Below, in pieces: positions 3,462 to 7,438 of a DNA stretch of 64,000 bases (its first letter is position 1; every line of letters starts with the position of its first letter). The position numbers and the translations under genes are program-made. This DNA is from Promethearchaeota archaeon (GTDB lineage Archaea; Asgardarchaeota; Lokiarchaeia; Sigyniarchaeales; SOKP01), in NCBI GenBank assembly GCA_048940925.1, contig JBHLOC010000025.1, positions 1-64,000 of the forward strand, in the 5' to 3' direction. The notes under the pieces are model-generated. The model did no database searches, was not told the origin of the DNA, and was given only the letters and a program-made list of their open reading frames with translations.

Positions 3462-4832
3462 ATGACCACTAATATAGTAGTTATCGGTATGGGATATGTA
3501 GGCATACCAATGGCAGCATTATTAGCAAATGTTGATAATTTTTATGTTACTGGGATTCAACGAAGGTCAAAAAGATCTGGGTGGAAGATAGATTGGCTCA
3601 ATAGTGGAAAGAATCCTTTTGAGGGAGAAGAGCCAGGCTTAGATGAATTAATAGCTAATGTTGTAAAGAATGGAAAATTTAAAGTTACAGATAAATATGA
3701 TGATGTAGATAATGCAGATTTTATTCTTGTTGATGTACAAACTCCAGTTGATTTAGATTCTAAAGTTCCCAGATATGAATCTTTGAAAGAGGTGTCTAAA
3801 GAAATATCTAAACATCTCAGAAAAGGAACTACGATTATAATTGAATCCACAGTAGCACCTGGTACAACAAACAATATTGTTCAACCAATATTAGAGGAAG
3901 GAAGTGGATTAAAGAGAGGAAACGATTTTTATCTAGTATTTTCATTCGAACGCCTTATGCCAGGGAAATTACTCGAATATATCACAGATATGGAACGAGT
4001 AATTGGAGGTGGGTGTGAAGAAGCGAATAATAGGGCAAAATTTTTATATGGAAAGGTAGTTAAAAGGGAATTAAGAGTTACTGATACATTAACAGCAGAA
4101 TTAACTAAATGTATTGAAAATGCTTATAGAGATGTTAATATTGCTTTTGCAAATGAAATGGCATTATTATGTGAAGACTTTAATAGAAATATATTTGAGA
4201 TTATTGAATTAATTAACCAGAGAGATGATCGAATGATGCATTATCCTGGTTCAGGTGTAGGAGGTCATTGTTTAACTAAAGATCCACACTTACTCGAATA
4301 TGGTCATCGCACGTATACAGAACATAAATTTAATTCGGATATCTTGCTAAAAGCAAGAGAGCTAAATGATTCTATGCCTCGTCATATAATAGAATTAATG
4401 GAAGATACGTTTAGAGAATCTCGTAAATTAGTAGATAATATTAAAGTTACTCTTTTAGGTGTTTCTTATAAAGCAAATACAGATGATACACGTAATACGC
4501 CCTCAGAAAATATTGTCAAATTCCTCAAAAATAGGTATCATTCGCACAATATAACATTTATAGCACATGATCCTTATGTGAAATCTCGAGATTACAATGC
4601 TACAGAATTAACCCATGATTTTGATAAAGCAGTTTCTGGTGCTGATGTACTTATTTTTGCGACAAACCATAGTGAATATTATAATATTGATCTTGATGAT
4701 TTGAAAAAAAAATTAAGAACCCCTATTATAATTGATGGAAGGAATATCTTTAGGAAAAAAACAGTCGAGGAAAAGGGATTCACATATAGAAAAGTCGGAG
4801 AAGGATCAAATACACCAACAAATATTAGATAA
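3462..4832 (+). CDS. Nucleotide-sugar dehydrogenase (UDP-ManNAc/UDP-GlcNAc dehydrogenase, WecC-like)
   Basis: GMGYVG Rossmann motif, IESTVAPGTT, ENAYRDVNIAFANE, catalytic GVGGHCL, GVSYK..TDDTRNTP. Confidence 0.9.
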   Translation: MTTNIVVIGMGYVGIPMAALLANVDNFYVTGIQRRSKRSGWKIDWLNSGKNPFEGEEPGLDELIANVVKNGKFKVTDKYDDVDNADFILVDVQTPVDLDSKVPRYESLKEVSKEISKHLRKGTTIIIESTVAPGTTNNIVQPILEEGSGLKRGNDFYLVFSFERLMPGKLLEYITDMERVIGGGCEEANNRAKFLYGKVVKRELRVTDTLTAELTKCIENAYRDVNIAFANEMALLCEDFNRNIFEIIELINQRDDRMMHYPGSGVGGHCLTKDPHLLEYGHRTYTEHKFNSDILLKARELNDSMPRHIIELMEDTFRESRKLVDNIKVTLLGVSYKANTDDTRNTPSENIVKFLKNRYHSHNITFIAHDPYVKSRDYNATELTHDFDKAVSGADVLIFATNHSEYYNIDLDDLKKKLRTPIIIDGRNIFRKKTVEEKGFTYRKVGEGSNTPTNIR

Positions 4833-4856
4833 TAAATATATAATTAATCACAGCTC

Positions 4857-5963
4857 TTATATATCTTCAACTCGCAGAAACTGTAAGCCTTCCTCTAATG
4901 TTTTAGCAAAAGGCAACTTAACATTCTTACTGATTAATTGATTTCTAAAATTCTCAAGAATGTTCTCTGCTGCTTCTGTTAATTCATCCATTTTGTTAGA
5001 CATTAATAAAATTTCCATATCCGTTTTAATTACTTCAGGAAGTTTCTTAATATACTCATCTATCGGATAAAGACTATTTCTGTCCCATCTCTTATTTTGA
5101 AGAACCATATAAGACCAAATAAAGAATTCTGTAAGATCTGTTGTGGCATAAATTCCAGCATTTAGATCATTATTTTTAGCAGCAGACTTTATCGTATAAT
5201 ATCCCTCAACTGCAGAACTCCATTCTGCTATAATATTCTTATAGGTTTCTTCAGGTTTATCCATATTATCTGCCAACCAATTTTTATATAGCAGATGAAG
5301 ATCATCTACTAGCTCCTCTGCAATTTTAAGAGCTTTGTTTGGCTTGGCTGTTATCAATTTCTCAAATCGTTGAGTAAAATTATTAGGTTTGATTGAAAAT
5401 TTCTCTATTTCTGCTAGTTGTTTCCCCCAGTTGTTAAGAAAGTATTGGTTGTTTAATCCTGCTAATCTATGACAAACTCCAATAGCTATATCCCAAATAA
5501 GTAATCTGATATTTTCTTCTTTATCATTTTCAATATTTTTTTCAATCAACCAAAGTTTACTGAAGAGATCATCAAAGTTCATTGTTTCTTTTACTACTGT
5601 TATTCCCCCTTGATTGATCTTAGATAAAATATTTTCGAGTTTTTGTCGATGTTCTAAACTTTTCTCCCAAACAACAATACCATTTGCTAGAGATCCAGCA
5701 CTCGTACTCCAACAGCCGAGTTTACCTTTTACAAGCTCTTCAGCATACTCCCATGTCATAGACCATGCTTGAATAGGTCTTTCATTAAACATAAATTCCC
5801 AGACAACTTTCTTTGAATCACAAATTATCATTATATCATAATCGGAGAGTTCCTGACCTAAATTGCGAGCAAAACTACCAAATAAAATAACTAAATCGAT
5901 TTCTGGAACATTTTTTGCTAATAAATAGGCAATTTGTTTAATTTCTTGTAAATTCTCATTCAT
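4857..5963 (-). CDS. Pol-beta-type nucleotidyltransferase domain protein (kanamycin NTase-like)
   Basis: N-terminal LFGSFAR...SDYDIMII motif followed by helical domains. Confidence 0.7.
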   Translation of the reverse strand: MNENLQEIKQIAYLLAKNVPEIDLVILFGSFARNLGQELSDYDIMIICDSKKVVWEFMFNERPIQAWSMTWEYAEELVKGKLGCWSTSAGSLANGIVVWEKSLEHRQKLENILSKINQGGITVVKETMNFDDLFSKLWLIEKNIENDKEENIRLLIWDIAIGVCHRLAGLNNQYFLNNWGKQLAEIEKFSIKPNNFTQRFEKLITAKPNKALKIAEELVDDLHLLYKNWLADNMDKPEETYKNIIAEWSSAVEGYYTIKSAAKNNDLNAGIYATTDLTEFFIWSYMVLQNKRWDRNSLYPIDEYIKKLPEVIKTDMEILLMSNKMDELTEAAENILENFRNQLISKNVKLPFAKTLEEGLQFLRVEDI

Positions 5964-6280
5964 TGCAATCAGTGTGTAAATATTTTACTATATTAAAAAT
6001 GATCAGATTATTTTTTTTAATAATTACCCAAATATTGATAAAACTAGAGAAGGATCAAAAAATTGTTTAAAAAATGGGATTAAATAAAAGTTAATCGTTA
6101 GTTCTTACGGAACGTAAAGTTAAATCCAAACATTTTTGATTTAATTTTTTTAGATAGATTTTGTTAACTTTCCTTAATTTAATATAAAAAGATGAAGCAA
6201 TATTATATAATCTCGAATTCTTGGCTGAATTCATGGGATTAGATCCCAATATTTTTTAAATCTAATCTTTGAGATTTGTA

Positions 6281-6421
6281 TTAGTTTTTTGAAATTCTTT
6301 TCTTATGGCGTCTATTCTTGATAATTTTAAAACCCCGAATAATTCCGTCAATTATACCTCATCCCGTACAAAAGAATTCGTCTTTTTTTGAACTATCTAG
6401 TTTTTGTTTCCATTCTGACAT
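6281..6421 (-). CDS. Candidate 46-aa selenoprotein (in-frame TGA in CxxU context)
   Basis: ATG 6421 to TAA 6281 reads MSEWKQKLDSSKKDEFFCTG(TGA)GIIDGIIRGFKIIKNRRHKKRISKN; AUGA-containing hairpin at 6199-6253. Speculative. Confidence 0.35.
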
Positions 6422-6577
6422 GATTTTAATTTAAGTTTGTGTTTTTAAATTTAAAATCTATTGAAGAAATAAATATATTATTGTTATTAATAATAAGAAT
6501 GTATTATGAAGAATTATATTAAGTTAACTTTCTCTTTTAAGCTGTTAACTTGAATTAAATATTTTGTAAGTAGATTA

Positions 6578-7438
6578 TTACAATCCTAATTCTTCTAGTC
6601 TCCGAACTGCCTCTAAAGCTGTGCTGAATATTACGTTCCTTTCGACAGCACACATCATCAGAAATTCATAAACATCATTTAGAGTTCCTTTAGTCCAACC
6701 TAATTCAGCGAACTCGAAATGATGCCAGAAACTTTGAAAAACATCAACACTAAGGTCTCCTCTTAATCTATTTCTGAGATAATTAATCTGACTCTTTATA
6801 TCACCCCCACCAAGATTCCCACTAACTGGTAATTCAATTATAGAAGATCTTCCTTCAATCCAAGGATCACTTGTTGATGGTCGATAAGGGTAGAACTCCT
6901 TATGTCGAGAGTTATCTGCTAGAATAAAATCACCTGTAGCTGGGTGTTTTAATTTTTCTCCAGGAACAAGTGAGCAATCCACTTTAAAACCTGCCTCCTC
7001 CAAGACTTGGATTGTGTTCGTATGAAATGTAAACATTCCGCTAACATGAGTTACAGGGGGCGGTATATCAAGAGCAATAGCCATTTGTCTAATAGCTCCA
7101 GCGATTCTATCTTGATTTAAAACACCATTCTCATCAATACAGTAAGCATATCTTCCTTTATATGTGTGGCCATTCTTTCGTTGGGATCCAGGTAAGTGGG
7201 AGTGGATCCCAATTTCATGACCTTCTTCTATAAACCGGAATATATCCTCTAAATGCTCTGATAGAAACTCTTCAGTAATACAGTATGTGACTTTTGGGTT
7301 TTTTCCTGTTTCTTTGAAAATTTGATCAAAAACATCTTCTATCTTAGGTTGTATCTTCTCAAATAACTGCCAAGACCCATCGAAATCTAATTCAGTATGA
7401 CAAACAAGTACAATATGAAGCTCTGTATCTTTACTCAT
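6578..7438 (-). CDS. Polysaccharide deacetylase / NodB-like (CE4) family protein
   Basis: HTELD near the N-terminus, GHEIGIHSH metal motif, GFKVDCS, IIELPV. Confidence 0.7.
   Translation of the reverse strand: MSKDTELHIVLVCHTELDFDGSWQLFEKIQPKIEDVFDQIFKETGKNPKVTYCITEEFLSEHLEDIFRFIEEGHEIGIHSHLPGSQRKNGHTYKGRYAYCIDENGVLNQDRIAGAIRQMAIALDIPPPVTHVSGMFTFHTNTIQVLEEAGFKVDCSLVPGEKLKHPATGDFILADNSRHKEFYPYRPSTSDPWIEGRSSIIELPVSGNLGGGDIKSQINYLRNRLRGDLSVDVFQSFWHHFEFAELGWTKGTLNDVYEFLMMCAVERNVIFSTALEAVRRLEELGL

Follow-up and report, generated by a model that had tools for sequence, protein, structure and literature searches.

The locus described here raises the question of whether a short intergenic spacer of a lokiarchaeial genome encodes a small selenoprotein and, if it does, which RNA signal would direct the insertion of selenocysteine (Sec). 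The window, i.e., the whole stretch of 64,000 nucleotides that was analysed, represents contig C84 of a 4.8 Mb genome with 29.6% G+C. The spacer of 614 nt is flanked by two minus-strand ORFs, one of which (6578-7438) gave no matches in the Pfam search and the other (4857-5963) was recognized by Pfam as a Polbeta-type nucleotidyltransferase. The initial annotation had placed in this gap, considered otherwise empty, an unannotated gene for a 46-residue selenopeptide followed by a hairpin regarded as its SECIS.

The proposed frame, referred to as gene 1, reads as claimed. It occupies positions 6281..6421 of the minus strand, from ATG6421 to the TAA stop (6283-6281), comprises 46 codons plus the stop, and contains a sole in-frame TGA (6359..6361). 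Translated with this TGA as U, the product is MSEWKQKLDSSKKDEFFCTGUGIIDGIIRGFKIIKNRRHKKRISKN, where Cys18 (codon at 6370-6368, minus strand) and the putative Sec21 form a Cys18-Thr-Gly-Sec21 (CxxU) motif within F-F-C-T-G-U-G, ahead of a basic tail. The gap turned out not to be empty otherwise. It also holds a TATA-like A/T box, ATATATTTATTT (6467..6478, minus strand), situated approximately 45-57 nt upstream of the gene 1 ATG, and a decayed second copy of the 3' RNA element described below (6159-6087). The A/T box was near-invariant in the alignment of 17 genomes and is a probable TATA-type promoter element of the micro-gene. Within the spacer, short A/T-rich blocks (6128-6160 and 6440-6500, minus strand) have counterparts of 80-90% identity at numerous unrelated sites in related genomes; they probably correspond to shared promoter- or terminator-like sequence, or to further element copies in those genomes.

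The spacer (approximately 6499-6168) was matched in all 24 sampled genomes of the genus, and the detailed alignment of the locus comprised 17 genomes. The six-frame profile search covered 154 genomes of the order and recovered the gene 1 ORF from 106 of them (103/134 genomes of the family, 12/24 genera), hence the homologs, whose absence would have spoken against the gene, do exist. Every significant match in these 106 genomes had exactly one in-frame TGA. Four stop-free matches to the profile were weak (E > 1e-3) and lay inside long unrelated ORFs. The TGA was invariant in 17/17 aligned genomes, and the Thr and Gly codons beside it were present in all four synonymous forms. The codons around the TGA were, in order, TGT/TGC, ACT/ACA/ACC/ACG, GGT/GGA/GGC/GGG, TGA, GGT/GGC/AGC and others, ATT/ATA/ATC, and GAT/GAC. 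The ORF begins with M-S-E-W-K in the aligned genomes, an N-terminal indel of 12 nt preserves the frame, and the consensus reads MSEWKNKLDN..-C-T-G-U-[G/S]-I-[I/V]-D-[G/S]-x-I-x-[G/C]-I-K... and continues into a K/R-rich tail.

The coding signature extends across the TGA. Pairwise divergence at the first, second, and third codon positions amounted to 0.21/0.17/0.40 upstream of the TGA and 0.33/0.16/0.46 in the 12 codons downstream of it, the third position being the most divergent on both sides. The dN/dS ratio (NG86) was 0.28 upstream and 0.24-0.30 downstream, so that purifying selection is equally strong before and after the TGA. The frame past the TGA stayed open for 24-32 codons in all 17 genomes, with the other two frames closing at medians of 5 and 2. 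Conservation of the ORF, therefore, does not end at the TGA, since codon periodicity, the open frame, and the low dN/dS all persist beyond it.

The initial annotation had anticipated homologs with either TGA or Cys at codon 21. Cys homologs were found neither in the 154 genomes nor in a protein collection of 5.8 billion clusters, and TGG or TGY at the Sec position was absent from all relatives (>100 genomes). The profile search of the same collection returned 14 proteins of 45-58 residues, encoded on contigs of <=1.7 kb, all of them with C-T-G-W. Two of the 14 are identical to the ORF of the genome G003, whose codon is TGA, so the W in these two entries is the gene-caller translation of TGA; in the remaining twelve proteins the W presumably also comes from TGA. 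Cys homologs are a common but not an indispensable attribute of selenoprotein families; as they are lacking here, surveys based on Sec/Cys pairs would miss the gene 1 family.

The genome contains the whole set of Sec functions that the initial annotation had suggested to look for. The tRNA-Sec scored 63.7 bits (cut-off 47), the SepSecS gene adjoins it, and an EFSec/SelB-like gene lies nearby (240 bits, just below the cut-off of the bacterial SelB model). There are also two selD genes, each with an in-frame TGA. TGA acts here as an ordinary stop, closing 259 of 1957 long frames, thus a reassigned code is not the explanation for the TGA in gene 1. Of the 154 genomes of the order, 146 possess SepSecS; the co-occurrence of gene 1 with the Sec trait is consistent with Sec decoding but non-discriminating, because nearly the whole order uses Sec.

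The hairpin drawn initially downstream of gene 1 was only partly confirmed. Its three complementary segments, AAUAUUG with UAAUAUU at 6205-6199, UAAUC with GAUUA, and GAAUUC-AGCCAA-GAAUUC, are all present, but only GAAUUC/GAAUUC belongs to the conserved fold. The outer helix AAUAUUG/UAAUAUU sits in a sequence that is not conserved in the 17-genome alignment. The UAAUC/GAUUA helix was paired in 77.6% of cells, showed no covariation, and had its middle pair broken in 11 of 17 genomes, the column of that pair covarying instead with its partner in helix P2 of the fold described below. The AUGA taken for the 5' half of an AUGA/GA core is present at 6234-6231 but varies across genomes (AUGA, ACGA, AAGA, or AUAA). 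The GA of this AUGA is Watson-Crick paired at the base of helix P3. If the AUGA is instead left unpaired to serve as the core, an upper stem of only 4 bp with a loop of 6 nt results. Such a drawing also leaves two extra nucleotides before the 3' GA and falls outside both published SECIS models. On the basis of the family alignment, the helices of the first-drawn hairpin were rejected, with the exception of GAAUUC/GAAUUC.

The RNAalifold consensus and the pair counts revealed a different structure, a three-way junction designated element A (6209..6276, minus strand), which is a probable core-less SECIS. Helix P1 pairs 6276-6271 with 6214-6209 (AAUCUC/GAGAUU), and a junction of two nucleotides, AA, separates it from helix P2, formed by 6268-6258 with 6245-6236 (10 bp) and closed by the 12-nt loop nnAAAAnnnUAG (6257-6246). 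The second junction, UAY (6235-6233), leads to helix P3 (6232-6227 with 6220-6215, GAAUUC/GAAUUC, 6-nt loop at 6226-6221), the 3' strand of which runs straight into P1; all these parts lie on the minus strand. A local palindrome, GGGAUCUAAUCCC (6233-6248), is made up of the 3' half of P2 together with the junction, and its GGGAU/AUCCC pairing is not kept in relatives. Element A is the most conserved portion of the locus. P1 begins 5 nt past the stop, and in the genomes with a longer protein tail the element overlaps the final codons.

Among the 17 A copies, 95.5% of cells were paired, three P2 pairs were compensatory (one of them with six pair types), and the covariation score exceeded those of all 500 shuffles and of all slid registers. 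The covariance model R2, built from the A copies, was used to fit an alignment of 41 A and B copies, B being the paralogous group of elements found behind a second gene in relatives. In this larger set, 96.4% of cells were paired and 15 of 22 pairs changed on both sides, in all three helices, e.g., from A-U to G-C in P3; these counts are qualified by the fitting of the alignment to the model and by the paralogy of A and B. The single-sequence MFE fold gave the same three-way junction (z = -2.85 versus shuffles). R2 scored 84 bits on element A in this genome and 76-99 bits across the A copies of 21/21 genomes. The Rfam gathering scan of the window produced no matches, and the eukaryotic SECIS model (RF00031) had no match in the genome at E <= 1.

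To what extent element A resembles the SECIS elements of this lineage was judged against the published models and the genuine elements of the same genome. In lokiSECIS type I, a 9-bp stem stands between AUGA on its 5' side and GA on its 3' side, and the 11-nt loop opens with adenines and closes with (A)G (Mariotti et al. 2016, PMC4989117); the SelD SECIS is a type II variant with a ministem (PMC4989117; PMC11227280). The Asgard eSECIS-like model has the core 5'-GA_[G/A]A-3', an upper stem of 7-15 bp, and a loop of 8-20 nt (Huang et al. 2024, PMC11227280). The pattern scan of the genome identified seven type I elements, which either begin 4-23 nt after a TGA-containing gene or overlap its end; the HdrA-VhuD tandems and HdrA are among these genes. 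Both selD genes have type II elements, beginning 5-8 nt past the stop. The covariance model R1, derived from the seven type I elements, gave 54-61 bits on this training set and 31-38 bits on two more genomic elements. On the candidate region it reached 12.8 bits as a partial match to a bare stem-loop (E = 2), which was one of 45 noise matches in the window, and the relatives' element copies scored at most approximately 20 bits, i.e., at noise level. The hairpin as first drawn, therefore, does not correspond to the SECIS consensus of the genome. Canonical SECIS three-way junctions with R1 scores of 38.5 and 31.6 bits are located at C41:146524-146577 (+) and C62:28245-28299 (-), respectively.

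In the MFE folds of eight genuine elements (three from HdrA-VhuD, one from HdrA, two from SelD, and two further), the SECIS hairpin always rose from a basal helix and was followed by a 3' side hairpin that leads without interruption back into that helix; the loops of the side hairpins often contained ...UGCAA.... Element A has the same three-way topology as the genome's own SECIS of selD, HdrA-VhuD, and HdrA, starts like them within approximately 25 nt of the stop, and carries a side-hairpin loop comparable to theirs (CGCAAA, CGCAA, AGCCAA). It shares with lokiSECIS type I the location directly behind the stop of a TGA-containing gene, and its P2 resembles the type I hairpin, with a stem of ~9-10 bp and a loop of 11-12 nt that contains an A-run and a (U)AG end. 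The terminal AG occurs in most copies; copy A of this genome has UGG, and its stem and loop measure 10 bp and 12 nt versus the 9 bp and 11 nt defined, so that P2 comes near the type I definition without coinciding with it.

The differences concern the core. In contrast to lokiSECIS type I, element A has no AUGA 5' of the stem, where the P2 flank is CUCAA(G), and no GA (or AA) 3' of it, where the flank is UAY. The canonical junctions of ~8 nt (with AUGA, 5') and ~5 nt (with GA/AA first, 3') are replaced by AA and UAY, and P2 closes at its base with the Watson-Crick pairs GGA/UCC, unlike in canonical SECIS. The stem and loop lengths of P2 fit the Asgard eSECIS-like model, but the GA_RA core is absent. 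By inspection, the element consensus also lacks the asymmetric GAA_A bulge of Euryarchaeal SECIS, with its long lower stem and short G+C upper stem. On manual inspection, the tandem sheared G.A pairs of a kink-turn or k-junction could not be fitted at any of the junctions, as every register pairs the candidate GA with UC in Watson-Crick fashion. The most apt description of element A is thus that of a three-way junction of the SECIS type lacking the kink-turn core.

In the relatives, the locus contains a second module. Each of the 16 relatives examined carries a second micro-ORF, gene 2, approximately 150 nt past element A; it has its own A/T box, an invariant in-frame TGA, and the consensus MEDQEDYLDLEFDDD-C-Y-S-T-S-U-GMLNMWYRRAQKLRKLRE (CxxxxU). 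Behind it is element B, a second element copy with the same P1/P2/P3 layout, intact copies of which scored 38-61 bits with R2 in 20/20 relatives. Gene 2 had no match anywhere in the genome studied here (best E = 0.99). The pairwise alignment with the closest relative, G018, placed an approximate deletion junction at 6160..6165, where ~250 bp encompassing gene 2 and its promoter are missing. The orphan element B (6087..6159, minus strand), which in relatives follows gene 2, is decayed (R2 21.1 bits), its substitutions affecting P1, P3, and the UAG of the loop. Since element B decayed after the loss of gene 2, the element appears to be tied to the ORF. The decay fits a cis-acting recoding signal and argues against an independent RNA gene. 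The two gene and element modules probably arose by duplication, hence they do not constitute fully independent evidence.

The neighbourhood has also been rearranged. In relatives, the pair of micro-selenoprotein genes and a gene for a UDP-glucose/GDP-mannose dehydrogenase are immediate neighbours in convergent orientation, and here (window 3462-5963) the Polbeta-type nucleotidyltransferase gene (4857-5963, minus strand) intervenes between the dehydrogenase and the micro-gene. The locus, therefore, has both an insertion and the gene 2 deletion. The R2 search of the genome, in which 150 of 8,440 first-look candidates were scored, so that weak copies may have escaped it, revealed no further sound element copies. 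A 26-bit look-alike at C86:46504-46590 (-) has P1 and P3 near the consensus, a broken P2, and an insertion of 13 nt; it is located in or beside a small-GTPase-like ORF and may be either a decayed copy or a coincidence. A match on C31, inside a zinc-finger ORF, was dismissed as coincidental.

Altogether, these results make it quite probable that gene 1 is a 46-codon gene whose UGA is decoded as Sec and that the conserved core-less 3' RNA most likely directs the recoding. The UGA at codon 21 would be read as Sec, creating the Cys18-Thr-Gly-Sec21 motif at the turn of a predicted helical hairpin, with Sec capping the N-terminus of a second, amphipathic basic helix. The likely chemistry would be that of a reversible selenylsulfide redox couple on a minimal scaffold. 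Recoding would most likely be directed by the RNA starting 5 nt past the stop and composed of P1, P2 with its lokiSECIS-type loop, and the side hairpin P3; the arrangement is that of SECIS elements in this lineage, but the junction strands that are normally AUGA and GA would have shrunk to AA and UAY. We infer the Sec insertion itself, the SECIS function of element A, and the redox role of the peptide from comparative data. Against this explanation, element A is devoid of the AUGA_GA quartet that defines the published Asgard and eukaryotic SECIS, and the usual support from Sec/Cys pairs is missing. Of the initial proposal, the selenopeptide has thus gained strong support from its homologs, the coding signature past the TGA, and the Sec machinery, but the hairpin, as drawn, is not supported as a SECIS.

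Alternatively, Sec might be inserted in response to some other cue, with the 3' three-way junction serving as a terminator, a stability/processing element, or a protein-binding site. We consider this improbable. The absence of the AUGA/GA core and the noise-level scores of the canonical lokiSECIS model speak for such a role, yet no other conserved structure was detected, the synonymous sites past the UGA vary freely, and no R1 match lies nearby. Moreover, the topology and the apical-loop motif are common to genuine SECIS and element A, and the element accompanies both TGA micro-genes and decays upon gene loss. It is very unlikely that the UGA is read as an amino acid other than Sec, e.g., as Trp or Cys by near-cognate decoding, to give a 46-residue protein without selenium. 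The W assigned to this codon by public gene callers in 14 database entries seems to favour such decoding, but at least two of these entries equal the G003 ORF letter for letter, with TGA as the codon, so that the W is a code artefact. TGA is a normal stop in this genome, and the lack of TGG/TGY at this codon in >100 genomes would not be expected were Trp or Cys acceptable. In addition, a Cys three residues upstream provides the classic CxxU spacing in a lineage that decodes Sec.

The default reading of the code, with the TGA as a true stop, would leave a 20-residue peptide followed by a sequence conserved as part of a longer RNA element, and a structured RNA does exist in the 3' region. The 24-32 codons past the TGA, with their periodicity, dN/dS of 0.24-0.30, and a frame that is open in 17/17 genomes, all confined to the frame of the ORF, render this highly unlikely, and the predicted structure begins only past the final stop. 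That a chance ORF and a chance hairpin met in an AT-rich spacer would be conceivable for one genome of 30% G+C, in which short one-stop frames and short A/U helices are common and the fold z of -2.85 is only mild. This view is refuted by the ORF and element in >100 genomes, the coding signature, and the RNA covariation, and its probability is negligible.

For the selenopeptide, which is the reading we prefer, the protein model offers some functional hints. The gene 1 peptide had no Pfam match. The AF2 model based on the 17-sequence alignment is a helical hairpin (pLDDT 73.5) in which helix 1 (residues 3-18) ends at Cys18 and helix 2 (residues 21-45) is N-capped by Sec21. In CxxC/CxxU motifs, the reactive residue occupies this N-cap. 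Helix 2 has small residues at i, i+4, and i+8, is amphipathic and basic, and ends in a polybasic tail. The gene 1 product may act as a redox peptide of minimal size that uses a selenylsulfide and perhaps binds to an acidic surface or partner. In the eukaryotic thioredoxin-fold selenoproteins SelW, SelH, SelT, and SelM, the Sec of the CxxU motif sits at a helix N-terminus. The gene 1 product would have both features, but its 46 residues are too few for the beta-alpha-beta thioredoxin fold, the model has two helices, and no homology was detected. The role of a leader peptide or uORF was rejected: in relatives, the gene that comes next, for the UDP-glucose/GDP-mannose dehydrogenase, is read in the opposite direction towards the micro-genes, and different genes lie upstream.

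The selenoprotein families listed in the Asgard survey are SelD, FrhA/VhuU, HdrA, FrhD/VhuD, Prx-like, AhpF-N-like, and DsbA-like, and a review from 2026 arrives at 11 families for the archaea, with no mention of small or orphan selenoproteins (PMC13188914). The gene 1 family appears in neither list, and no paper describing it was found in the literature. With the known Asgard and archaeal selenoproteins it shares a UGA near Cys, a redox-type motif, and a Sec-decoding lokiarchaeial host, but it differs from them in having no sequence or Pfam relationship, no Cys homologs, and only 46-57 residues. VhuU is likewise a very small selenoprotein.

Other ORFs of the genome were noted next to canonical elements. 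An ORF at C63 ~88300-88590 (+) has a predicted membrane segment and a C-K-R-U motif, and its last codons and TGA stop overlap a canonical lokiSECIS at 88551-88585 (R1 59.9 bits); it may be another unlisted small selenoprotein. Canonical lokiSECIS elements were also seen at C41:222972-223006 (-), behind a membrane ORF of approximately 78 aa (..FEGGTSUSSPC..), and at C7:42951-42985 (-), behind an ORF with adjacent TGA-TGA codons (..HADUUADV..).

Gene 1 very probably encodes a Sec micro-protein conserved in >100 Loki-type Asgard genomes and missed by annotation, because the internal UGA is taken as a stop. The published Asgard selenoproteomes were compiled from homologs of known families and from Sec/Cys pairs, with SECIS searches that demand the GA_RA core. 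The gene 1 family fails both filters, so the existing catalogues undercount selenoproteins. There is about an even chance that, in Lokiarchaeia, a SECIS without the AUGA/GA kink-turn core can direct Sec insertion, with the three-way junction and the A-rich, UAG-ending loop as the recognition determinants and the core being either dispensable or a later specialisation, and that the micro-proteins form a new lineage-wide class without Cys counterparts. A 46-residue CxxU hairpin would rank among the smallest natural selenoproteins and could be a useful minimal redox scaffold. If the core-less element does direct Sec insertion, the target of the archaeal SECIS-binding factor would need rethinking, and the finding would bear on the origin of the eukaryotic SECIS/SBP2 system.
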